Shown here: in pieces, positions 19,660 to 37,701 of the stretch
Layout of the letters: the number at the start of each line of letters is the position of its first letter
How positions within the stretch are numbered: the first letter of the stretch is position 1
Assembly (NCBI GenBank): GCA_944359625.1
Contig: CALVSW010000001.1
Location: forward strand, 29,192 to 93,191
Source of the DNA: an uncultured Bacilli bacterium
GTDB taxonomy: Bacteria > Bacillota_I > Bacilli_A > RF39 > UBA660
DNA length: 64,000 nt
Direction of reading: 5' to 3'
The notes under the pieces: generated by a model
Told to the model about the DNA's origin: nothing
Databases searched by the model: none
The model's input: only the letters and a program-made list of their open reading frames with translations
Position numbers and translations under genes: made by a program

Positions 19660-21072
19660 TTAAACTTCATGAATTTTTAAGAAGTTAGTATGACAATCTT
19701 TAGGGAATCCTCCGATAACAGCTACTAAATCACCATATCTTAAATTCATTAATTCACGAGCTGCTTTAACACCTTCATTAACGATATCATCAGTATCTTT
19801 ACCCATAGGTACAATCTTAGGATATACACCCCATTTTAGTGCTAAACTACGTGCTACTTTTTCATCTGTAACAGTAGCTACAATAATAGAGTTTGGTCTT
19901 AATGAAGAAACATCGATAGCAGTTTTACCAGTTAAAGTAGATACTACGATAGCTTTAATTGGTAAATCAATTGTAGCATCAACACAACATTTAGCAATAG
20001 TATTATGAATTTCTGTTCCTAATAATTTATAATCTTCTAAATGATATTTTGTTACTTTTTCTACATTTAAACAAATTTTAGTCATTGTACTAATAGTTTC
20101 AACTGGATATTTACCAATAGTAGTTTCATCACTGGTCATAATAGCATCACATCCAGCTATAACAGCATTAGCAACATCAGTAACTTCAGCATTAGTAGGT
20201 CTAATATTTGTTTTCATTGAATACATCATTTGAGTTGCCATAATTACACCTTTACCATTAGCATGGCACATATCAATCATTTTCTTTTGATATAATGGTA
20301 AATTTTCAACACCAGTTTCAATTCCTAAATCACCACGAGCAACCATAATATAATCAGAAGCTTCAACTATTTCTTCTAAATTATCAATTGCGTATTGTGT
20401 TTCAACTTTAGAAATAATTATCATATTTGGTTTACCAAACTTTTTACATAATTCTTTAACTTCATAAATATCTTCTTTAGTATTAACAAAAGATAATGCT
20501 AAATAATCACCATCATGTTCACAAGCATATTTAATATCTTCTTCATCTTGTTTTGATACATATGGTACATTAAGTTTAATACCTGGAATACATACACCAC
20601 GACGTGATTTAATAACACCAGAATTTTCAATACGACATGTAACACCATCAGATTCTACAGATATTACTATTAACTTGTAGAAACCATCATCAACTAATAT
20701 TACAGATCCAACTTTTAAATCCTTTAATATGCCTTTATAGTTAAAACAAATTGCATCCTTAGTACCTAAAAAATTTTCATCATTTGTTTCAATAATACGA
20801 ATTATATTGCCTTTTACTAATTCTATTTTATCATCTACAAATGCACAAGTTCTTAAATCTGGTCCCTTAGTATCATATAAAATAGCTATATTAGCATTTA
20901 ATTCTTCATTAGCTCTTTTAACTAATGCTTCATCAATAGCTCTTTCTTCTAATGTAGCATGAGAAAAGTTAATTCTAGCTACATTCATACCAGCTTCTAC
21001 AATACCTTTAAAGTTTTCCCAACTTTGAGTAGAAGGACCGATACTACAAATTATTTTTGTTTTCTTTAACAT
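19660..21072 (-). CDS. pyk: Pyruvate kinase
   Basis: MLKKTKIICSIGPS, NVARINFSHA, KIENSGV-like, MVARGDLGIE, MATQMMYSM. Start taken at the internal Met (21072), which matches canonical PK N-termini. Confidence 0.93.
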   Translation of the reverse strand: MLKKTKIICSIGPSTQSWENFKGIVEAGMNVARINFSHATLEERAIDEALVKRANEELNANIAILYDTKGPDLRTCAFVDDKIELVKGNIIRIIETNDENFLGTKDAICFNYKGILKDLKVGSVILVDDGFYKLIVISVESDGVTCRIENSGVIKSRRGVCIPGIKLNVPYVSKQDEEDIKYACEHDGDYLALSFVNTKEDIYEVKELCKKFGKPNMIIISKVETQYAIDNLEEIVEASDYIMVARGDLGIETGVENLPLYQKKMIDMCHANGKGVIMATQMMYSMKTNIRPTNAEVTDVANAVIAGCDAIMTSDETTIGKYPVETISTMTKICLNVEKVTKYHLEDYKLLGTEIHNTIAKCCVDATIDLPIKAIVVSTLTGKTAIDVSSLRPNSIIVATVTDEKVARSLALKWGVYPKIVPMGKDTDDIVNEGVKAARELMNLRYGDLVAVIGGFPKDCHTNFLKIHEV

Positions 21073-21202
21073 ATACTTCACCCTTCCGAAACGATTTAAT
21101 ATTAGCATAAAATTGCTAAAAAGTAAATATCGAATGTGTATGATAACTTGCATAAAACTTATAAAAGTGATAATATAACCTAAATTTTAAAGGGGGATTA
21201 TT

Positions 21203-24019
21203 ATGCATAAAGATTACTCTAAAATAGGTTTATATCCTCATAATATTAATGGATATGAAAAAGTTACTGAAGGTTATAAAAATAACTCAATTGTCTCAGT
21301 TATTCGTGCTACTGGCACTGGTAAAACATATATTGGTTTACAATTAGCCCTAGATAATAATGATAAAAAAGCAATGTATTTTGTACCTAGTTATGCTATT
21401 ATTGAACATATTACAAGCACAATAAATGATAATCCTAACTTAGATTTAAAAAAAGATTTTCCAAATCTTGATTTAAGAGTTTATCAAAGCTTAGTAAATA
21501 TGTCTTATGAAGAGATTAAAAACTTAGATGTTGATATTTTAATTCTTGATGAGTTTCATCATCTTGGGGCACCAGTATGGGGTGCAAGAATTAAAACATT
21601 AATTGAAACTCATCCTAATATTAAAATATTTGGGATGACTGCTTATACAGTAAGAGATCGAAATACTCCTTATGAAAGAGATATGATAAATCCATATACT
21701 AATGAATTATTTTCTAACACTGATGTTAGTCATTATGATATTTGTGATGGGATGATTAATCGTGTATTACCATTACTAATATATCGTAGTGCTTGGCTTG
21801 TAAATGAGTTATATCAAAAGATTGAAGAAGAAGCAAAAGACCTTGATCCTACACTTTCTGAAGATAAAAAATTATTAGAGTTAATAAAAAATGCAAAAAG
21901 ACTAATTCAAAAAGCGCCAAGTATTATAGATGTTATAAAACAAAATATAATTCCAGATGGAAAGTACATTTATTTTTGTCCACCAAAATCTAAAGATGGT
22001 AAAAATGATATCGATACGATAATGCAAGAAGCCAAAGAATGGTTTTTAGCTATGGGTTTAAAAGAAGAAGATATAATATTTTATAAAACAACTAGTAAAA
22101 TGCGTAAGTTAGGAAAGCAAAATCGTGATGCATTTTATTATGATGTTGACTTAGAAGGTAATTCAGTATCAAATAAATTAAGAGTTATGTTTGCTATAAA
22201 TCAATATAACGAAGGAGTACATGCCCCCAATGTTAATGGAGTAATCATGGGAAGATATACATCTTCAGATATCGTCTATTTTGAAGAATTAGGAAGAGCA
22301 TTATCGGTTAAAGGAGATACTTTAAAAAAATATGAAGAATATCAAAAATATTCCTTAGAAGAATTATTAGACTTATGTAAGCAACGAAAAATATACGTTG
22401 AAGATAATATAACAAAAGAAAAAATAATAAATAAATTATTATCGCCAGTAGTAATTGATTTAGTTAATAATATTGGATTTATAAAAGAGTTAGAAAATAA
22501 CCTAAAGGATAGAATTAAAGAAATATCTAAAAAAACTGGTAATCATCGTGATAATACGTTAACATTAAAAGAAACATATTTTGATATTGTCATACAAAAC
22601 GAAGATTTATTTACAGTATTAAATGATTTATCTCAAAGATTAGCAAATTCCTGGGATAAAATGTATGTATATGCCAAAATATATTATGAATATCATCATA
22701 ATTTAGAAGTGCCTTATAAGTTTAAAACTAACAATGGATATGAAGAAGATGAAAATGGTAAAGTGAATTTAGGAACTTGGATAAATCATCAAAGGCAAAA
22801 CATTGCTCCATCAAGTGAACGAGGTCAAAAATTATTGGCAATTGGTATGCGTTTTGAAAATAAATTTTTAACTTGGGACGAAATGTATGAATATGCTAAA
22901 ATATATTTCGAACATCATGGTAATTTAGAAGTACCTCAAAAATTTAAAACGAATAATGGTTATGAATATGATGTGAATGGTAAAATAAATCTAGGTCAAT
23001 GGATAGATACTCAAAGATATAAAGTTGTTCCAACAAGTGAACGAGTTCAAAAATTGTTAGCAATTGGCATGCGTTTTGAAAATAAATTTTTAACTTGGGA
23101 TGAAAAGTATGAATATGCAAAAAAATATTATGAATACCATGGTAATTTAGAAGTACCTCAAAAATTTAAAACAAATAATGGTTATGAATATGATGCAAAT
23201 GGTAAAGTGAATTTAGGTACTTGGATAGCAAACCAGAGGCAAAACATTGCCCCATCAAGTGAACGAGGCCAAAAATTATTAGCAATAGGTATGCGTTTTG
23301 AAAATATAAGAAGTACATTAACATGGGATGAAATGTATGAATTAGCCAAAAAATATTATGAGAAACATGGTAATTTAGAAGTACCTTATAGTTTTAAAAC
23401 GAATAATGGGTACGACTATAATGCTTTCGGTAAAGTGAATTTAGGTACTTGGATAGTTAGTCAAAGATTTAAGGTAGATCCAACAAGTGAACATGGTCAA
23501 AAATTATTAGCAATAGGTATGCGTTTTAAAAATAAATTTTTAACGTGGGACGAAATGTATGAATTAGCCAAAAAATATTATGAGAAACATGCTAATTTAG
23601 AAGTTCCTCGTAGCTTTAAAACCAATAATGGCTATGAGTATGATGTGAATGGTAAAGTGAATTTAGGAAAGTGGATAGTTCGTCAAAGATACAATATAGA
23701 ACCAACCAGTGAACGAGGCCAAATGTTGATTAAAATTGGTATGATATTTAGTGCAAAGAAAAATAAGGAAGATATAAAAATATTTTGTTTAGAAAACAAT
23801 ATCGATTTAGATAAAAATAGAATTACTTTAAATCATATATCTATCCAAGAACTTATTGCTAAAACTAGATATTTAAAAGAACAAAATATAGATATAGTAG
23901 ATGCAAATGGTTTATTACATGAAATATATAGTATGAGCAGTGTTAATATGCAAGTTAAATATAATATAAGTTTAGAAGAATTAATAGATAAATACTTTTT
24001 AACTTATAGTAGAAAGTAA
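21203..24019 (+). CDS. SF2 (DExH, ResIII-like) helicase fused to 5 tandem helicase-associated (HA) domain repeats
   Basis: Walker A RATGTGKTY, DEFHH box (ILILDEFHHLGAP), MTAYTVRD, C-terminal lobe NQYNEGVHAPNVNGVIM...EELGRAL. Then 5 copies of WDEMYEYAK.YYE.HGNLEVP..FKTNNGYEYD.NGK.NLG.WI..QR. Confidence 0.85.
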   Translation: MHKDYSKIGLYPHNINGYEKVTEGYKNNSIVSVIRATGTGKTYIGLQLALDNNDKKAMYFVPSYAIIEHITSTINDNPNLDLKKDFPNLDLRVYQSLVNMSYEEIKNLDVDILILDEFHHLGAPVWGARIKTLIETHPNIKIFGMTAYTVRDRNTPYERDMINPYTNELFSNTDVSHYDICDGMINRVLPLLIYRSAWLVNELYQKIEEEAKDLDPTLSEDKKLLELIKNAKRLIQKAPSIIDVIKQNIIPDGKYIYFCPPKSKDGKNDIDTIMQEAKEWFLAMGLKEEDIIFYKTTSKMRKLGKQNRDAFYYDVDLEGNSVSNKLRVMFAINQYNEGVHAPNVNGVIMGRYTSSDIVYFEELGRALSVKGDTLKKYEEYQKYSLEELLDLCKQRKIYVEDNITKEKIINKLLSPVVIDLVNNIGFIKELENNLKDRIKEISKKTGNHRDNTLTLKETYFDIVIQNEDLFTVLNDLSQRLANSWDKMYVYAKIYYEYHHNLEVPYKFKTNNGYEEDENGKVNLGTWINHQRQNIAPSSERGQKLLAIGMRFENKFLTWDEMYEYAKIYFEHHGNLEVPQKFKTNNGYEYDVNGKINLGQWIDTQRYKVVPTSERVQKLLAIGMRFENKFLTWDEKYEYAKKYYEYHGNLEVPQKFKTNNGYEYDANGKVNLGTWIANQRQNIAPSSERGQKLLAIGMRFENIRSTLTWDEMYELAKKYYEKHGNLEVPYSFKTNNGYDYNAFGKVNLGTWIVSQRFKVDPTSEHGQKLLAIGMRFKNKFLTWDEMYELAKKYYEKHANLEVPRSFKTNNGYEYDVNGKVNLGKWIVRQRYNIEPTSERGQMLIKIGMIFSAKKNKEDIKIFCLENNIDLDKNRITLNHISIQELIAKTRYLKEQNIDIVDANGLLHEIYSMSSVNMQVKYNISLEELIDKYFLTYSRK
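22652..23750 (+). repeat. In-frame tandem coding repeat, 5 HA-domain units
   Basis: TGG (Trp) unit starts at 22652, 22874, 23096, 23324 and 23546, giving a period of 222/228 nt. Confidence 0.9.
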
Positions 24020-24082
24020 GCATATATATCTTAACTTCTATTAAGATATATAATATTTATAATTATAAAAAAGGAGGTTATT

Positions 24083-24319
24083 ATGGAAAGAAAAGTTGGA
24101 CGTGTTATTGAAGTATTTATACCCGAAGAAGATAATCTAAATGATATGAATATAGGTTTTAAAGTGTTAGTTGATGATGACGTAATAGAAATTATTGAAG
24201 AACAAAACGAATCTAATATTAATATTTTAAAGGATGACTTAGTAATGATTACAAAACAAGTAATATCTAATAAAGAATTTATTGATATAGAATTATATGA
24301 TGGTGATTTATATGAATAA
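24083..24319 (+). CDS. Small acidic hypothetical protein, translationally coupled to the second helicase
   Basis: RBS aaggagg upstream. 78 aa. Its stop (24317-24319) overlaps the ATG at 24312 of the next gene (tATGAATAA). Confidence 0.55.
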   Translation: MERKVGRVIEVFIPEEDNLNDMNIGFKVLVDDDVIEIIEEQNESNINILKDDLVMITKQVISNKEFIDIELYDGDLYE

Positions 24320-27300
24320 AGATTACTCTAAGATTGGCTTATACCCACATAATATTAATGGATATGAAAAAGTTATTGAAGGTTATAAAAATAACTCTGT
24401 TGTTTCAGTTATTCGTGCCACTGGCACTGGTAAAACTTATATTGGTTTACAATTAGCCCTAGATAATAATGATAAAAAAACAATGTATTTTGTACCTAGT
24501 TATGCGATTATTGAGCATATTACAAGTACAATAAATGATAATCCTAACTTAGATTTAACAAGAGATTTTCCTAATTTAGATTTAAGAGTTTATCAAAGCT
24601 TAGTAAATATGTCTTATGAAGAGATTAAAAACTTAGATGTTGATATTTTAATTCTTGATGAGTTTCATCATCTTGGGGCACCAGTATGGGGTGCAAGAAT
24701 TAAAACATTAATTGAAACTCATCCTAATATTAAAATATTTGGGATGACTGCTTATACAGTAAGAGATCGAAATACTCCTTATGAAAGAGATATGATAAAT
24801 CCATATACTAATGAATTATTTTCTAACACTGATGTTAGTCATTATGATATTTGTGATGGGATGATTAATCGTGTATTACCATTACTAATATATCGTAGTG
24901 CTTGGCTTGTAAATGAGTTATATCAAAAGATTGAAGAAGAAGCAAAAGACCTTGATCCTACACTTTCTGAAGATAAAAAATTATTAGAGTTAATAAAAAA
25001 TGCAAAAAGACTAATTCAAAAAGCGCCAAGTATTATAGATGTTATAAAACAAAATATAATTCCAGATGGAAAGTACATTTATTTTTGTCCACCAAAATCT
25101 AAAGATGGTAAAAATGATATCGATACGATAATGCAAGAAGCCAAAGAATGGTTTTTAGCTATGGGTTTAAAAGAAGAAGATATAATATTTTATAAAACAA
25201 CTAGTAAAATGCGTAAGTTAGGAAAGCAAAATCGTGATGCATTTTATTATGATGTTGACTTAGAAGGTAATTCAGTATCAAATAAATTAAGAGTTATGTT
25301 TGCTATAAATCAATATAACGAAGGAGTACATGCCCCCAATGTTAATGGAGTAATCATGGGAAGATATACATCTTCAGATATCGTCTATTTTGAAGAATTA
25401 GGAAGAGCATTATCGGTTAAAGGAGATACTTTAAAAAAATATGAAGAATATCAAAAATATTCCTTAGAAGAATTATTAGACTTATGTAAGCAACGAAAAA
25501 TATACGTTGAAGATAATATAACAAAAGAAAAAATAATAAATAAATTATTATCGCCAGTAGTAATTGATTTAGTTAATAATATTGGATTTATAAAAGAGTT
25601 AGAAAATAACCTAAAGGATAGAATTAAAGAAATATCTAAAAAAACTGGTAATCATCGTGATAATACGTTAACATTAAAAGAAACATATTTTGATATTGTC
25701 ATACAAAACGAAGATTTATTTACAGTATTAAATGATTTATCTCAAAGATTAGCAAATTCCTGGGATAAAATGTATGAGTATGCTAAGCAATATTATGAAC
25801 ATTATGGTAACTTAGAAGTTCCTCAATGGTTTAAAACAAATAATGGTTATGACTATGATGAGAATGGTAAAATAAATTTAGGTGCATGGATAGCTTGTCA
25901 AAGATTAAGAATTTCCCCAACCAGTGAACGTGGTCAAAAATTATTAGCCATAGGTATGCGTTTTGAAAATAAATTTTTAACTTGGGACGAAATGTATGAA
26001 TATGCCAAGATATATTATGAACATCATGGTAATTTAGAAGTTCCTTATAAATTTAAAACCAATAATGGATATGAATATGATGAGAATGGCAAAATAAATT
26101 TAGGTCAATGGATAAATCGTCAAAGGCAAAAAATTGATCCAACAAGTGAACGAGGCCAAAAATTATTAGCAATTGGCATGCGTTTCGAAAATAAAATTTG
26201 TACATTAACGTGGGACGAAATGTATGAGTATGCCAAGATATATTATGAGAAACATGGTAATTTAGAAGTTCCTCAATGGTTTAAAACGAATAATGGTTAC
26301 GAATATGACGAGAATGGTAAAATAAATTTAGGTCTATGGATAGTACGTCAAAGACATAATGTTGATCCAACAAGTGAACGAGGCCAAAAATTATTAGCCA
26401 TAGGTATGCGCTTTGAAAATAAATTTTTAACGTGGGACGAAATGTATGAATTAGCCAAAAAATATTATGAGAAACATGGGAATTTAGAAGTTCCTCATAG
26501 CTTTAAAACAAACAATGGTTATGAATATAGTGAACATGGTAAAATCAATTTAGGCCCGTGGGTAGATCGTCAAAGGCAAAGAGTTGACCCAACAAGTGAA
26601 CATGGTCAAAAATTATTAGCCATAGGTATGCGTTTCGAAAATAAAATTTGTACATTAACGTGGGACGAAATGTATGAATTAGCCAAAAAATATTATGAGA
26701 AACATGGTAATTTAGAAGTTTCTCAAAAATTTAAAACCAATAATGGATATGAATATGATGAGAATGGCAAAGTAAATTTAGGTCAATGGATAAATCGTCA
26801 AAGGCAAAGAGTTGACCCAACAAGTGAACATGGTCAAAAATTATTAGCAATTGGCATGCGTTTTGAAAATAAATTTTTAACGTGGGACGAAATGTATGAA
26901 TTAGCCAAAAAATATTATGAGAAACATGGGAATTTAGAAGTTCCTCATAGCTTTAAAACAAACAATGGTTATGAATATAGTGAACATGGTAAAATCAATT
27001 TAGGATTTTGGATAGCAACCCAAAGACAAAGTGTTGCCCCAACAAGTGAACGCGGTCAAAAATTATTAGCAATTGGCATGCGTTTCGAAAATAAAATTTG
27101 TACATTAACGTGGGACGAAATGTATGAATTGGCCAAGTTATATTATGAACATCATGGTAATTTAAAAGTTCCCTCTAGCTTTAAAACTAATAATGGCTAT
27201 GAATATGATGAAAATGGTAAAATAAATTTAGGAAAGTGGATAGTAAAGCAAAGAGAAAAAGTTATTCCAACAAGTGAACGAGGCCAAATGTTGATTAAAA

Positions 27301-27584
27301 TTGGTATGGTATTTAGTGTAAGAAAAAATAAAGAAGATGTTAAAATATTTTGTTTAGAAAATAATATTGATTTAGAGAAGAACAAAATTACTTTAAACCA
27401 TATATCTATTCAAGAACTTGTTGCTAAAACTAGGTATTTAAAAGAACAAAATATAGATATAGTAGATGCAAATGGTTTACTACATGAAATATATAGTATG
27501 AGTAATGTTAATATGCAAGTTAAATATAATATAAGTTTAGAAGTATTAATAGATAAATACTATTTAACTTATAGTAGAAAGTAA
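24312..27584 (+). CDS. Paralogous SF2 (DExH) helicase fused to 7 tandem HA-domain repeats
   Basis: MNKDYSKIGLYPHN... parallels copy 1 (MHKDYSKIGLYPHN). Same helicase motifs. 7 copies of the WDEMYE.AK.YYE.HGNLEVP... unit. Start taken at ATG 24312; the ORF track starts at 24297. Confidence 0.85.
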   Translation: MNKDYSKIGLYPHNINGYEKVIEGYKNNSVVSVIRATGTGKTYIGLQLALDNNDKKTMYFVPSYAIIEHITSTINDNPNLDLTRDFPNLDLRVYQSLVNMSYEEIKNLDVDILILDEFHHLGAPVWGARIKTLIETHPNIKIFGMTAYTVRDRNTPYERDMINPYTNELFSNTDVSHYDICDGMINRVLPLLIYRSAWLVNELYQKIEEEAKDLDPTLSEDKKLLELIKNAKRLIQKAPSIIDVIKQNIIPDGKYIYFCPPKSKDGKNDIDTIMQEAKEWFLAMGLKEEDIIFYKTTSKMRKLGKQNRDAFYYDVDLEGNSVSNKLRVMFAINQYNEGVHAPNVNGVIMGRYTSSDIVYFEELGRALSVKGDTLKKYEEYQKYSLEELLDLCKQRKIYVEDNITKEKIINKLLSPVVIDLVNNIGFIKELENNLKDRIKEISKKTGNHRDNTLTLKETYFDIVIQNEDLFTVLNDLSQRLANSWDKMYEYAKQYYEHYGNLEVPQWFKTNNGYDYDENGKINLGAWIACQRLRISPTSERGQKLLAIGMRFENKFLTWDEMYEYAKIYYEHHGNLEVPYKFKTNNGYEYDENGKINLGQWINRQRQKIDPTSERGQKLLAIGMRFENKICTLTWDEMYEYAKIYYEKHGNLEVPQWFKTNNGYEYDENGKINLGLWIVRQRHNVDPTSERGQKLLAIGMRFENKFLTWDEMYELAKKYYEKHGNLEVPHSFKTNNGYEYSEHGKINLGPWVDRQRQRVDPTSEHGQKLLAIGMRFENKICTLTWDEMYELAKKYYEKHGNLEVSQKFKTNNGYEYDENGKVNLGQWINRQRQRVDPTSEHGQKLLAIGMRFENKFLTWDEMYELAKKYYEKHGNLEVPHSFKTNNGYEYSEHGKINLGFWIATQRQSVAPTSERGQKLLAIGMRFENKICTLTWDEMYELAKLYYEHHGNLKVPSSFKTNNGYEYDENGKINLGKWIVKQREKVIPTSERGQMLIKIGMVFSVRKNKEDVKIFCLENNIDLEKNKITLNHISIQELVAKTRYLKEQNIDIVDANGLLHEIYSMSNVNMQVKYNISLEVLIDKYYLTYSRK
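25761..27315 (+). repeat. In-frame tandem coding repeat, 7 HA-domain units
   Basis: Seven WD(K/E)MYE... units counted in the translation. Some units carry the ENKICTLT linker variant and others ENKFLT. Confidence 0.9.
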
Positions 27585-27592
27585 GTGATTAT

Positions 27593-27883
27593 ATGTTTTT
27601 AAATAAATATATAAACAAATTTTATTTAAATTTAATATATGATAATTATGAAGAAGATTTTATTAATTCTTTAGATGAAGAAAATTTTATAAAAATAAGT
27701 AATTTATTTAAAAATAATAATTTTTATTTTATAAATGATATATATCTTAATTATTTAGAGATATTTAACTTAGATTATGAAGAAGTTTTTAATAAATTAG
27801 AAATATTAAAAAATAAATTAGGAAATAACTATAATTATATTATAGGCAATGATATGAGATATTTAGAATTTTTGATGAATTAA
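27593..27883 (+). CDS. Small hypothetical protein (Asn/Tyr/Glu-rich)
   Basis: 96-aa ORF starting 8 nt after the helicase-2 stop. No motif recognised. Confidence 0.45.
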   Translation: MFLNKYINKFYLNLIYDNYEEDFINSLDEENFIKISNLFKNNNFYFINDIYLNYLEIFNLDYEEVFNKLEILKNKLGNNYNYIIGNDMRYLEFLMN

Positions 27884-27992
27884 ATAATAAAATAATATGT
27901 CTCATATAATATTTTATAAAGGGATGCAAATAAATTTGCATTTTTCTTAATTTTGTGGTAGTGTATCATGCACAAAGAGGGGGTATTTATTT

Positions 27993-28553
27993 ATGAGAAA
28001 AAGAAATAATAGGTTAACTTTACTATCTTCAATAGCGCTTATGGGAGTGTTATTGGCTTTGAATCCATCTAAAAAAGAGGATATTTCAGAATTTAAAAGC
28101 GATGAAAGTACAAAAGAAAGAATTGGGGTAATTAGTCAAGAAAAGGTATCTGCTGATGAACTAAATTTTCCAAATAGTAGATACATAGATAATCAAAGTA
28201 TTTATAAATTTTTAATTAATAGTAAGTTACCATTTTGCAAAATAGATGATGAATATTATACTTTAAATGGTAATAAGATACTATTTTATATGGCTAAGGA
28301 ATATGCATTTCCAATTGAAATGGTAGTAACTGATGAAAATGGCAATAAAACTACTTATTTAGAACCACCAGAGGGATATAATTTAGTTGGTAATCAAGCA
28401 ATAAAATATGTAGAAAGAGCTACTGTTTTGCCAGATGATATGTTAATTCATCTTCAACAAGCTAATGAAATATCTGTAATAAATATTGTAGATTCAAAGC
28501 CTTATAGCAGTTTATTAGAAGAAGACTTATCTTTAAATTTAATAAAAAGATAA
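27993..28553 (+). CDS. Hypothetical secreted or membrane-anchored protein
   Basis: RBS agaggggg. N-terminal anchor LTLLSSIALMGVLLAL. 186 aa. Confidence 0.55.
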   Translation: MRKRNNRLTLLSSIALMGVLLALNPSKKEDISEFKSDESTKERIGVISQEKVSADELNFPNSRYIDNQSIYKFLINSKLPFCKIDDEYYTLNGNKILFYMAKEYAFPIEMVVTDENGNKTTYLEPPEGYNLVGNQAIKYVERATVLPDDMLIHLQQANEISVINIVDSKPYSSLLEEDLSLNLIKR

Positions 28554-28613: not shown

Positions 28614-30710
28614 ATGGAATTACTTGCTAATTTAAATCAAAATCAAAAAAAAGCTGTGATGCATAAAGATGGACCTTGTTTAGTTCTAGCTGGAGCTGGT
28701 TCCGGGAAAACCCGAGTTTTAACTACAAGAATTGCTTATTTAATTGACCAAAATATTCCATCTTATAATATCTTGGCAATAACTTTTACTAATAAGGCTG
28801 CTAAAGAAATGAAAGAACGTGTAACTAATTTAGTTTCTCAACCTTTAAGTTTTATAGGAACCTTTCATTCTTTAGGAGTTCGTATTTTAAAAGAAGAGTA
28901 TAGTTATGTAAAACTAGATAAAAACTTTACCATTTTAGATAGTGATGATGTGTTAAGTGTTATAAAAAAGATTGAAAAAGAATTAAATATTGATCCTAAG
29001 TTTTGTGCGCCATCATATGTTCGTAATAGGATAAGTTTTATAAAAAATGAAAATTTATCTTCTATAGAAATAGAGAAGTATTTTAATACGGATGTTGAAA
29101 AAATGGTAGTAAAAATATATCAAGAATATTTACAAATTTTAGAAAAAAATAATTCTGTCGATTTTGATGATTTATTAAGACTACCAGTTAAGATATTTAA
29201 AGAAAATAAAGAAGTATTAGAAAAATATCAAGAAAGATATAAATATATTCTTGTTGATGAATATCAAGATACTAATGAAGTACAATATCAACTTATTAAG
29301 TTATTAGCATCTAAGTATCATAACTTATTTGTTGTAGGTGATGCTAATCAATCAATATATGGTTTTCGTAATGCTAATTTTAAGAATATTTTAAATTTTG
29401 AAAAAGATTATCAAAATTGTAAAATGATTACTTTAGAAGAAAATTATCGAAGTACGGAAAATATTTTAAAAATAGCTAATTGTGTTATTAAAAACAATAA
29501 AGAAAGAAAAGATTTAGAACTACATGGTGTATTAGGAGAAGGTATAAAAACAAAATATATTCGTTGTTTAGATGGTAAAGATGAAATAGAGACTATTTTA
29601 AAAGAAATAGATAGTCTAATAAATGAAGGTTATAATTATAAAGATATTGCTATTTTATATCGTACTAATGCCCAATCACGATTAGTAGAAGAAGTATTTT
29701 TAAAACATAATATTCCTTATCAAGTAGTAGGAGCTTATTACTTTTATCAAAGAAAAGAAATTAAAGACTTATTATGTTATTTAAAATTAATTAATAATCC
29801 AACAGATGATATTTCTTTAAGAAGAGTAATTAATGTTCCTAAACGAGGTATTGGAACAGTTTCCGTAGATAAATTAGAGATTTTAGCAAAAGAAAATAAA
29901 ACTTCGATGTTTGATGCTATAACTAGTGGTAAAGAATTAGAATTTAAAAATTTAATTCTTGATTTAATTGAAAGCGCTAAAAATTTATCTTTAACTGAGT
30001 TAATCGATGAAATATTAGAAAAAACACATATTAAAGAGGAACTTAGTAAAGAAAAAAATTTAGAAAATGAATTAAGATTAGATAACTTAGAAGAGTTTAA
30101 ATCAATAACAGCTTCTTTTGAAGAAAGAACAGGTTCTGTAAATTTAGATGATTTTTTAGATGAAATATCTTTAATTGCGGATATAAGTGAACATAAAAGT
30201 AATAATAATGGAGTTACTTTAATGACAATCCATAGTGCTAAAGGTTTAGAATTTCGATGTGTATTTTTAATAGGTATGGAAGAAGGAATATTTCCTCATC
30301 AAAATTCTTTATATGATTCTAGTGAAATTGAAGAAGAAAGAAGACTTTGTTATGTTGGTATTACAAGAGCAAAAGATAGGTTGTATTTAACTAATGCTAA
30401 AAGAAGAATATTGTATGGAAAAGAAGAACTTAATCCTGTATCACGTTTTATTGAGGAGATTAATCCTGATTTATTAGAGATAGTTGAAAATAATTTATTT
30501 GCAGATAATTATCCAAAGTATGTAGAAAATAATCATAATATTAACAAAGATAATGATAATATTTATCAAGCAGGGGATGTTGTTATGCATAATACTTGTG
30601 GTCGTGGTGCTGTTATTAATGTTGATGATAAGTTTGTAACTGTAGCTTTTTCTAAAAGATTTGGAATTAAAAAAGTATTAAAAGATTATAAAGGAATGAG
30701 GAGATTATAA
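28614..30710 (+). CDS. pcrA: ATP-dependent DNA helicase PcrA/UvrD family
   Basis: LNQNQKKAV, LAGAGSGKTRVLTTRIAYL, ILVDEYQDTN, VGDANQSIYGFRNA, TIHSAKGLEF, VGITRAK. Confidence 0.93.
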   Translation: MELLANLNQNQKKAVMHKDGPCLVLAGAGSGKTRVLTTRIAYLIDQNIPSYNILAITFTNKAAKEMKERVTNLVSQPLSFIGTFHSLGVRILKEEYSYVKLDKNFTILDSDDVLSVIKKIEKELNIDPKFCAPSYVRNRISFIKNENLSSIEIEKYFNTDVEKMVVKIYQEYLQILEKNNSVDFDDLLRLPVKIFKENKEVLEKYQERYKYILVDEYQDTNEVQYQLIKLLASKYHNLFVVGDANQSIYGFRNANFKNILNFEKDYQNCKMITLEENYRSTENILKIANCVIKNNKERKDLELHGVLGEGIKTKYIRCLDGKDEIETILKEIDSLINEGYNYKDIAILYRTNAQSRLVEEVFLKHNIPYQVVGAYYFYQRKEIKDLLCYLKLINNPTDDISLRRVINVPKRGIGTVSVDKLEILAKENKTSMFDAITSGKELEFKNLILDLIESAKNLSLTELIDEILEKTHIKEELSKEKNLENELRLDNLEEFKSITASFEERTGSVNLDDFLDEISLIADISEHKSNNNGVTLMTIHSAKGLEFRCVFLIGMEEGIFPHQNSLYDSSEIEEERRLCYVGITRAKDRLYLTNAKRRILYGKEELNPVSRFIEEINPDLLEIVENNLFADNYPKYVENNHNINKDNDNIYQAGDVVMHNTCGRGAVINVDDKFVTVAFSKRFGIKKVLKDYKGMRRL

Positions 30711-36253: not shown

Positions 36254-37138
36254 ATGTCAAAATATGATGAATATAATTATAATATAAAAATTGAAGAAAA
36301 TAATAAAATAGATAATATAAATAATATAAAATACATTAATGATGATTTTATATATAAAGAGGAAATTGACTATGTAAAAATAAATAAATATAATGATATT
36401 ACCAGTTTTAGTGACTTAATATCAAGTATTCAATCAGGAAGAAGAAACCGATCAAACAATTTAAGTGCTCAACAATTACAAACATCAAGACAATTACTTA
36501 GTGGTCAATCACAGCAACAAGGTCAAAGTCAACGTAGTATTAATCAAACTTCTATTTCACAGTCATCTACTCCACAAACAACTTCTCAGCAAACTTCTAC
36601 TTCGCAGACCACAGTTCAACAAACTACTGCTTCACAAACTATTACGTCACAGTCTACCACATCACAACAAACTTTAAATTCTAGAACGGCAACAACTGGA
36701 TGGAGTCCAACTAGTATTGCAGGCACTGTATATAAGTTTAATCGTGGTGTTGTTGGAATTGATAGAGATGGAAATGTAACTGAAAGAGTACTTGATGGTA
36801 CAAGGGATCATCATAGTGAAGTCACTGCAGAAATTGGAAATTTAACTAATCTTAGTCCTACTGAAAGGTATACTAGACCTTTTGAAAACGGTTTATTAGC
36901 TTCTGAAGGAGGAACACTTATAATTCAATTAGAAGGTGATTCTGCTTTAGTTTATTTGCCAAATGAATTAACTGAAGAACAATTAACTAAATTAAATTTA
37001 GAAATTACGCCTCGTAGTAATTTTGCTATTTCATTTACTCATAATGGTAATATTTATGAGGATGATAATATAAATGGGCAGGCGTTAATATCTTTTTGTC
37101 AAAATTTAGTAAGTAGGTTAAGTAGAAGTTCTCGATAA
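36254..37138 (+). CDS. Hypothetical protein with a Gln/Ser/Thr low-complexity linker
   Basis: 294 aa. Central SQQTSTSQTTVQQTTASQTITSQSTTSQQT tract. The C-terminal approximately 150-aa domain is unrecognised. Confidence 0.55.
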   Translation: MSKYDEYNYNIKIEENNKIDNINNIKYINDDFIYKEEIDYVKINKYNDITSFSDLISSIQSGRRNRSNNLSAQQLQTSRQLLSGQSQQQGQSQRSINQTSISQSSTPQTTSQQTSTSQTTVQQTTASQTITSQSTTSQQTLNSRTATTGWSPTSIAGTVYKFNRGVVGIDRDGNVTERVLDGTRDHHSEVTAEIGNLTNLSPTERYTRPFENGLLASEGGTLIIQLEGDSALVYLPNELTEEQLTKLNLEITPRSNFAISFTHNGNIYEDDNINGQALISFCQNLVSRLSRSSR

Positions 37139-37226
37139 ATTATATGATTAACTCTGTTATTAAACGGAGTTTTTATATTTTAATGACTTTAATAATATTA
37201 TTTGCTATAATTAAAATGGTGATAAT

Positions 37227-37643
37227 ATGAATAGTAAAGGTTTTACTCTAGTTGAATTACTTGCAGTATTAGTTATTTTAAGTTTATTAATTACAGTAGC
37301 TGTTCCCTCAGTAAATAAGATTATGTTAAATATTAATGAAGATATGTATTGTGAAAAAGTTACTAATATCGAAAATACTGCTAGATTGTATGCTGAAGAT
37401 TACTATATGGATCAAATTGCTATTGATGAAAAAATTATTAAAGATGATATTCCTCTAAGTATTTTAATTGAAAAAAGTTATCTTAGTAAGGATGAAGAAA
37501 CTTGTAGTTTAGGTAGTAGTGATAATCCTTGTATAATAGATCCTCGTGATGATACTGGTATGGATAATTTAACTTTTAGAGTTTATACTAAAAATCGTCG
37601 TATTTATGCATCAGTAAATTTTGATAAAAGTATGTGTGAATAA
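37227..37643 (+). CDS. Type IV pilin / pseudopilin-like protein (prepilin N-terminal methylation motif)
   Basis: MNSKGFTLVELLAVLVILSLL carries the canonical G/FTLVE class III signal. Confidence 0.8.
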   Translation: MNSKGFTLVELLAVLVILSLLITVAVPSVNKIMLNINEDMYCEKVTNIENTARLYAEDYYMDQIAIDEKIIKDDIPLSILIEKSYLSKDEETCSLGSSDNPCIIDPRDDTGMDNLTFRVYTKNRRIYASVNFDKSMCE

Positions 37644-37701
37644 TTGTTATTTTAAATAAATTATGTTACGATAGTATAACTTTAAAAAGGGAGGTGCTTA
37701 T

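Follow-up and report, generated by a model that had tools for sequence, protein, structure and literature searches.

A tandem helicase cassette with variable helicase-associated domain arrays and two small acidic partners in uncultured gut Bacilli, a possible DNA surveillance module

A 64,000-nucleotide stretch of contig CALVSW010000001.1 (assembly GCA_944359625.1) from an uncultured Bacilli bacterium, hereafter the window, carries between pyk and pcrA an operon of two paralogous helicases and two small acidic proteins. Each helicase joins a complete superfamily 2 (SF2) motor of the XPB/RadD/SauUSI type to a tandem array of helicase-associated (HA) domains. Our leading interpretation, held tentatively and short of even confidence, is that this accessory operon encodes a DNA-tracking motor module of three components, whose role would be the surveillance of, or interference with, particular DNA, that is, a conflict system. 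Judged from sequence, a defence or surveillance role is plausible. The combination of helicase and HA domains is already known and annotated, and it is functionally uncharacterised. To our knowledge, and within the searches made, a cassette with two orphan partner families, a linkage between one partner and a helicase tail, a hypervariable helix face, and presence/absence alleles has not been described previously.

All four genes lie on the forward strand, and coordinates refer to positions in the window, with open reading frames (ORFs) taken from a program-made list. The first helicase gene, hel1 (21203-24019; 938 aa; SF2/ResIII by Pfam), is followed by orf78 (o78; 24083-24319), which has a strong ribosome-binding site (RBS) and encodes an acidic 78-aa protein predicted by AlphaFold2 (AF2) to form a beta-barrel resembling an oligonucleotide/oligosaccharide-binding (OB) fold. 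The paralogue hel2 (24312-27584; 1090 aa, starting MNKDYSK) has seven HA units and the same tail as hel1, and orf96 (o96; 27593-27883) completes the operon with an acidic small protein of 96 aa that is conserved in its family alignment. Read in the sequence, the orf78 stop region overlaps the hel2 start by 8 nt (ATGAATAA), and a further 8 nt separate the hel2 stop from the orf96 start. Independent gene calls on other contigs choose ATG 24312 for hel2, although the frame could also be read from a second in-frame ATG, at 24297. A sequence-only reading made beforehand had described tandem paralogous helicases with five and seven HA domains, repeat units of about 74-76 aa, a shared C-terminal tail, an overlapping 78-aa ORF, a 96-aa ORF 8 nt after the second copy, and a position between pyk and pcrA. 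This description was borne out: Pfam returns ResIII plus five or seven HA stretches, the units alternate between 74 and 76 aa, an 81-aa helical tail is predicted in hel1 with its like in hel2, the small ORFs lie as described, and a 186-aa ORF intervenes before pcrA.

The motor is supported by a Pfam ResIII score of 39.5 bits against a cut-off of 22.5. The translations contain the previously named motifs GTGKT, DEFH, TAY, and EELGRAL together with NEGVH, and motif I begins at residue 36. In the AF2 model of hel1 (pLDDT 84.5, from a 64-sequence alignment), RecA1 is predicted at about residues 1-200, followed by a helical insert, RecA2 at about 250-370, and a mixed linker at 373-483. Five three-helix HA units and the 81-aa helical tail complete the model. 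Foldseek comparison of this model with the PDB places RadD and archaeal XPB at the top (E ~1e-8), with SauUSI and many other SF2 enzymes below, and the likeness to RadD and XPB is that of a general SF2 core (TM 0.2-0.4, identity 13-15%). The family profile reaches two PDB entries, the SauUSI motor 7CLG over motifs V-VI (E=8e-10) and the HA-domain structure 2KTA (E=0.1). PDB sequence searches with single proteins gave nothing significant, RAD25 appearing only at E=1.9. Neither the tail nor the linker has a significant match in Pfam, NCBIfam, PHROGs, or PADLOC, with all family-alignment members scanned. A SAP/HeH-like motif suspected in the linker (YSLEELLDLCKQRKI...KEKIINKLL) found no Pfam support and is not claimed.

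Against a Pfam cut-off of 28.4 bits, hel1 shows five HA stretches (units 1-5, 22652-23773, forward strand; 206.5 bits, E=5e-62) and hel2 shows seven (units 1-7, 25761-27338, forward strand; 296.8 bits, E=3e-90). At DNA level, the repeat finder TRF detects 4.8 copies of a 222-nt period in hel1 (22652-23723) and 6.8 copies in hel2 (25761-27288), and a double period of 450 nt outscores the single one. The units share 74-94% nucleotide identity in a pattern that is mosaic across paralogues and species. Within hel2, units 4 and 6 are 91% identical in nucleotides, as are units 2 and 5, which indicates, on sequence comparison, that this array may be a five-unit array with an internal two-unit duplication (units 4-6). 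Both arrays are basic, with isoelectric points of 9.1 and 8.4. At the variable positions, all 12 units of the window differ from one another.

Entropy computed over 466 HA units from 84 loci identifies a near-invariant scaffold (W1, Y5, A8, Y11, L18, F24, T26, G29, G36, L40, G41, W43, Q47, R48, L61, I64, and G65), and entropy peaks at positions 22-23, 42, 45-46, and 49-54. Positions 40-50 form helix 2 in the AF2 model, and hence the variable positions 42, 45, 46, 49, and 50 would lie on one face of that helix beside W43, Q47, and R48; this mapping is a model-based inference. The earlier statement that HA function is unknown is now outdated. The structure 2KTA, a 74-residue HA domain of a "putative helicase", has been solved, and the title of its deposition paper (Mills 2013, ref 64 in PMC12191111) reports that it indicates domain binding to DNA. 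PMC12191111, a 2025 preprint, counts HA among the DNA-binding C-terminal domains fused to phospholipase D (PLD) family nucleases, and another preprint describes HA domains fused to TniQ target selectors. A profile built from the 12 window units alone did not reach 2KTA.

Within the species, polymorphic codons of the hel1 array comprise 33 nonsynonymous and 23 synonymous ones, whereas the hel1 core has 21 and 38, respectively. This array polymorphism is almost wholly confined to units 4-5 and to the hypervariable sites. In one strain (L107; such handles denote our loci and contigs), the residues found in hel1 units 4-5 are those of hel2 units 6-7, so HA units are exchanged between paralogues within the species. 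Repeat-number polymorphism among strains, which had been suggested, did not appear: all complete contigs of the species have five plus seven units. As a separate observation, the hel2 array has no polymorphic codon among four strain alleles, against 40 in the hel2 core, and this invariance could reflect assembly or recent conversion.

Assembly also bears on the duplication itself. The two helicase genes differ at 21 of their first 267 nt and are then identical from nt 268 to 1465. This identical core recurs in four other strain assemblies, even though divergence between strains over the same stretch amounts to 1-2.5%. One explanation would be that the tandem duplication and its identical 1.2-kb core are a short-read assembly artefact and that the genome holds one helicase gene. 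The 100% identity of the cores over about 1.2 kb in every assembly, alongside the divergence between strains, would fit this account, as would the many contigs broken inside repeats. However, hel1 and hel2 are distinguished by those first 267 nt as well as by their flanks and the number of their HA units, none of which is the same in both. The same gene order is found in at least five independent metagenome assemblies, which argues that the tandem arrangement is not a one-off error, and the same layout appears again in L077 and L079. Moreover, a related species (L001, ~89% nucleotide identity) has two copies with an 8% difference spread evenly over their cores. We regard a single-gene genome as highly improbable: an artefact is very unlikely for the duplication itself and possible for the perfect core identity, which could reflect either gene conversion (concerted evolution) or bubble collapse by short-read assemblers.

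The two small proteins belong to families of their own. Neither o78 nor o96 has a Pfam, NCBIfam, PHROG, or PADLOC family match, again with all family-alignment members scanned. Relatives' flanking small proteins align convincingly with orf78 and orf96, so both ORFs are taken to be real genes. Their net charges are -14.5 for o78 and -7.5 for o96. The AF2 model of o78 (pLDDT 87.9) is a five-stranded barrel whose best Foldseek matches are OB folds (LEF-3, RPA, HIN-200, SSB, and RecO), all weak (E >=0.006). It is an extremely acidic protein with a predicted OB fold, its stop overlapping the helicase start. Because it is so strongly acidic, direct binding of nucleic acid by o78 is unlikely. An exhaustive search of its profile against 1.84 billion representatives returned only 162 clusters, almost all of them stand-alone proteins of 70-90 aa. 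In a single 735-aa protein (P0349), the N-terminal 74 residues match o78, and this protein is probably a fusion with a helicase.

The second partner, o96, is inferred from its sequence to be helical and is restricted to helicases with a particular tail. The C-terminal tail of hel1 and hel2 is not universal in the helicase family. Genes for o96 adjoin 36 of the 54 helicases that have it and none of the 24 that lack it (Fisher p=6e-9, not phylogeny-corrected). Tailed helicases without o96 are mostly the first gene of a tandem pair. This restriction suggests a partnership between the tail and o96, and the sequence distribution of o96 marks it as inherited together with the tail. The idea that o96 arose as a separated tail or HA unit was rejected, with hhalign probabilities of 1.4% for the tail and 0.1% for HA.

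Relatives of the cassette are frequent in gut Bacilli, with about 80 species-level metagenome-assembled genomes (MAGs) carrying it. A helicase-core search of public proteins returned more than 500 ResIII+HA relatives; among the matches listed, the core relatives are mostly 53-63% identical, with two near-identical fragments, and 270-841 aa long. Gene maps of seven relatives show a three-gene cassette in which the end of an 85-aa ORF overlaps the helicase start by 8 nt and, mostly, a 103-107-aa ORF begins 2-5 nt past the helicase stop. In dozens of species, helicase homologues with 45-60% identity have o78 and o96 homologues beside them, as expected of the partner genes first proposed from the window. 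A scan with two peptide patterns over one genome per GTDB species returned 167 relatives and 79 loci. The loci are almost all in MAGs of "uncultured Bacilli" from human, rabbit, goat, deer, and mouse guts, and several MAGs have two cassette loci. Clostridium sp. CAG:433 is among the carriers, as are MAGs labelled Mycoplasma or Tenericutes. In a census with hidden Markov models (HMMs), 64 of 78 complete helicases have o78 immediately upstream, and 36 have o96 immediately downstream. Helicases carry between 1 and 11 HA units, most often 5-6, in agreement with the variable repeat arrays described beforehand.

Gene order around this common core varies. The full layout of the window (HEL-o78-HEL-o96) recurs in L079, the tandem HEL-o78-HEL is found in L001, L077, and L079, and related tandem forms occur in L034, L065, L072, and L083. 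Other orders are o78-o96-HEL (L039) and HEL-HEL-o78-o96 (L083). In one lineage (L002, L007, L008, L010, and L011; 6417-7751), a gene with SLFN_AlbA_2 and HATPase_c_4 domains (+HTH_24) ends 1 nt into the o78 start and may be a fourth operon member there. The same loci have a HATPase_c_3 gene just upstream on the opposite strand.

Within the species of the window, the cassette is present in some strains and absent from others. An exact look-up of the pyk protein found ten places, and the helicase adjoins pyk in eight. The remaining two, L104 (GCA_947853655.1) and L105, are empty sites at which pyk is directly joined to the 186-aa ORF and pcrA, so the presence/absence variation that the sequence-only reading had proposed to look for does exist. 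Because the cassette is missing here from contigs whose pyk protein is identical, sequence comparison shows it to be accessory and dispensable. Identity between the window and the empty sites ends after ...GTAAAT (21128) and resumes at 27932-27950, inside a terminator-like hairpin. The junction shows AAAT microhomology only, with different filler of 5-60 nt. The resulting 6.8-kb segment carries its own promoter-like site, RBS, and terminator-like hairpin.

The left edge of the segment (21129-21202, forward strand), defined by strain comparison, contains the promoter-like site, a TTGCAT (21148-21153) and a TG-extended TAATAT (21171-21176) separated by 17 nt and identified by consensus match only, and the RBS AAGGGGG. 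The left flank is pyk on the minus strand. Gene calls on ten contigs place its true start at 21072 (470 aa), and the mechanical ORF at 19660-21153 on that strand is 27 codons too long. Therefore, the true spacer between pyk and hel1 is 130 nt and contains the putative cassette promoter. An AT-rich 12-bp hairpin (24023-24052, forward strand; RNAfold -9.8 kcal/mol) in the spacer between hel1 and orf78 is possibly a weak terminator or processing site. That spacer (24020-24082) is 63 nt with the hairpin in the window and three other strains, and 35 nt in L015 (6456-6490). At the right edge, the terminator-like hairpin (ATGCAAAT..ATTTGCAT with a T-run; 27924-27953, forward strand) has a folding energy of -8.1 kcal/mol (RNAfold).

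One alternative is that the cassette is a cargo or functional gene set of mobile elements, such as integrative and mobilizable elements (IMEs), plasmids, or phages. It would help the element to transfer, replicate, or become established, or would oppose defences of the host, with the acidic proteins serving as DNA mimics. In four loci (L003-L006), an o78-helicase pair belongs to an IME, flanked by a Mob_Pre relaxase on one side and a helix-turn-helix (HTH)/serine-recombinase module on the other and near Abi_2 and ABC-3C genes, and an IME adjoins the cassette in L007, L008, L010, and L011. Distant HA-helicases (22-31% identity) reside on Ruminococcus, Aneurinibacillus, Phocaeicola, Vibrio, and Butyrivibrio plasmids; those on Ruminococcus albus megaplasmids stand beside integrases, and others are found in viral contigs. 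The strong acidity of o78 and o96 also fits this account, as DNA-mimic anti-restriction proteins are strongly acidic. However, most loci lack a recombinase, relaxase, or repeat boundary, and the 6.8-kb segment of the window has no recombinase, relaxase, target-site duplication, or inverted repeats, only the AAAT microhomology at its junction. Of 80 loci, at least 10 have genes typical of mobile elements no more than 10 kb away, a minimum because the query set was limited, and no enrichment of such genes was found around these 80 loci. Phage, plasmid, and IMG/VR collections contain only distant HA-helicases (<=33% identity), with no o78 or o96 at the IMG/VR loci scanned with HMMs and none annotated at two plasmid loci inspected. 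On balance, we consider a mobile-element function unlikely.

Another alternative is a lineage-specific helicase for DNA repair, replication restart, or nucleoid remodelling, RadD/XPB/RapA-like and serving the host chromosome, with the HA array as a generic anchor and the small proteins as accessory subunits. Its closest structural relatives among solved cores, RadD and XPB, are repair helicases, no effector domain is encoded, and the cassette is widespread in the clade among housekeeping genes, with stable position and structure in most strains of the species. Nevertheless, that likeness concerns the general SF2 core (TM ~0.25-0.4), two strains or close relatives lack the cassette at the site, and species differ in where it lies and how many copies they have. 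Nor would a generic anchor be expected to show hypervariable surface positions or shuffled units. Moreover, no flank synteny is shared among 84 loci; the commonest neighbour, an ABC transporter, reaches 14 of 84, and all others six or fewer. A conserved, single-copy, and invariant housekeeping locus, the case that would have spoken against the sequence-only reading, is therefore not what we find, given that copy and repeat number vary, sites are empty, and synteny is absent. We consider a repair or remodelling role somewhat unlikely.

A surveillance module is ranked first because the cassette is dispensable, relocates, duplicates, and shuffles its HA units. Residence of some loci in IMEs, or beside Abi_2 and ABC-3C genes, also favours this reading. 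We propose that the locus is such a module tandemly expanded to hel1 followed by o78-hel2-o96. The HA array would hold or read double-stranded DNA through the variable face of helix 2 (positions 42, 45, 46, 49, and 50), and the motor would translocate on, or unwind, the DNA so bound. Translational coupling could ensure that o78 is made in step with the helicase, on which it may act as a regulatory or nucleic-acid-mimicking subunit, and o96 may dock on the helicase tail as a second regulator or adaptor. Targets might include phage, plasmid, or IME DNA. As no nuclease is encoded, action by remodelling or unwinding is envisaged rather than cutting. A more specific version, in which the array is a modular, recombination-shuffled DNA reader, each unit of about 75 aa exposes a hypervariable helix 2 face, unit exchange re-programmes the target, and the whole forms a nuclease-free helicase system of immunity or exclusion that unwinds DNA or strips proteins, gated by the o78 mimic and the tail-bound o96, seems to us quite improbable.

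Several observations weigh against a conflict system. Motif VI (GRALS) lacks the second arginine, which leaves full helicase activity uncertain. Pfam, NCBIfam, PHROGs, and PADLOC detect no effector domain in the cassette proteins, whether nuclease, toxin, methylase, or other. The check for known defence systems suggested with the initial proposal gave little: PADLOC-DB v2.0.0 (2023) yields only short P-loop matches to Cas3 and an mREase_IV fragment over motifs V-VI for the helicases, and none for o78 or o96. Housekeeping and sporulation genes make up most of the 135 nearest neighbours, which also include six XRE-type HTH genes, two TnpV, and two AriA/GajA/PtuA-like ATPases; defence genes are not enriched among them, other PADLOC matches being generic HTH or ABC proteins. 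The cassette is also very common in the clade, with 167 matches in species representatives and often several loci per MAG, and such prevalence is unusual for a single defence system. Finally, the co-occurrence statistic for tail and o96 ignores phylogeny. Repair and mobile-element roles are consequently kept open, owing to the high prevalence in the clade and the absence of an effector, a PADLOC match, and a defence island.

The surroundings of the cassette show further variation. The 186-aa ORF (27993-28553, forward strand) has a signal-peptide or lipoprotein-like N-terminus, gave no family match, and is strongly diverged in L105; as it is also found in the empty-site strains, it lies outside the cassette. 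One strain has an IS200-type Y1 transposase between this ORF and pcrA (L020 1818-2291), and another has a transposase followed by recF-gyrB-gyrA instead of pcrA (L016 2996-9109), a rearrangement. A second presence/absence polymorphism near the cassette concerns a same-species reverse-transcriptase gene (RVT_1, 423 aa) after a 294-aa ORF, present in L015 (19952-20291), L021, and L022 and absent from the window (36254-37700), L104, and L020. IS91 genes stand beside a Ham1p gene in three strains (L107, L109, and L110). In the window, Rfam RF03531 ("C. difficile sRNA included into helicase gene") matches 30309-30403 on the forward strand, inside pcrA and just above the gathering score; this is probably conserved pcrA coding sequence and not an independent RNA.

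The cassette offers a compact system in which three proteins are inherited together, two being members of orphan families, with natural presence/absence alleles and natural variation in repeat number and helix-face residues. Its hosts are abundant uncultured gut Bacilli with small genomes, whose accessory genes are poorly understood. If the HA array does discriminate DNA sequences or states, it would constitute a new kind of motor-attached modular DNA reader. If the module restricts phages or plasmids without a nuclease, an unusual mechanism would be added to bacterial immunity. If neither applies, it is a widespread lineage-specific factor of DNA metabolism that deserves proper annotation.

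Comparison with known systems places the components in context. The five-stranded barrel predicted for o78 weakly matches small OB-fold subunits that bind single-stranded DNA, such as RPA small subunits, LEF-3, and SSB, but unlike these o78 is strongly acidic and has no sequence family match. For the HA arrays, transcription activator-like effectors (TALEs) offer an analogy, with no homology, in their units of fixed length, invariant scaffold, few hypervariable positions on one helix face, and shuffling by recombination. In contrast to TALEs, there is no sign that one HA unit reads one base or a specific sequence, and the analogy may serve as a lead.

Among motors, RadD and archaeal XPB match the two-lobe SF2 core best in structure. 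The cassette helicase has a dedicated partner gene, as XPB has in Bax1, but the cassette partners are small and non-catalytic. Neither the zinc-finger or SSB-binding module of RadD nor the damage-recognition domain of XPB was detected in the cassette helicase. The ATP-dependent type IV restriction endonuclease SauUSI (7CLG) is the best sequence relative among solved structures and also a Foldseek match. The match to the PADLOC mREase_IV family is weak and confined to residues 324-368 (E=4e-6, 23 bits), not full-length. Unlike SauUSI-like enzymes, the cassette helicase begins with its motor, carries HA repeats, and has no N-terminal PLD-family nuclease in Pfam, NCBIfam, or PHROGs.

The nearest relatives are the HA-domain SF2 helicases (PF03457 with PF04851; "Helicase associated domain protein" in NCBI), which have the same order of a ResIII core followed by HA domains. 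The three closest annotated plasmid homologues, from Ruminococcus and Aneurinibacillus, bear this name. No demonstrated biological role was found for any HA-domain helicase, and the literature found under the name mainly concerns the unrelated HA2 domain of DEAH helicases. Phocaeicola vulgatus BVU_0683 is an example of this family, and its HA domain is the one solved as 2KTA. Compared with these wider HA helicases, the cassette subfamily is set apart by its long arrays, which reach 11 units, by a C-terminal tail of its own, and by the two small genes dedicated to it as partners.

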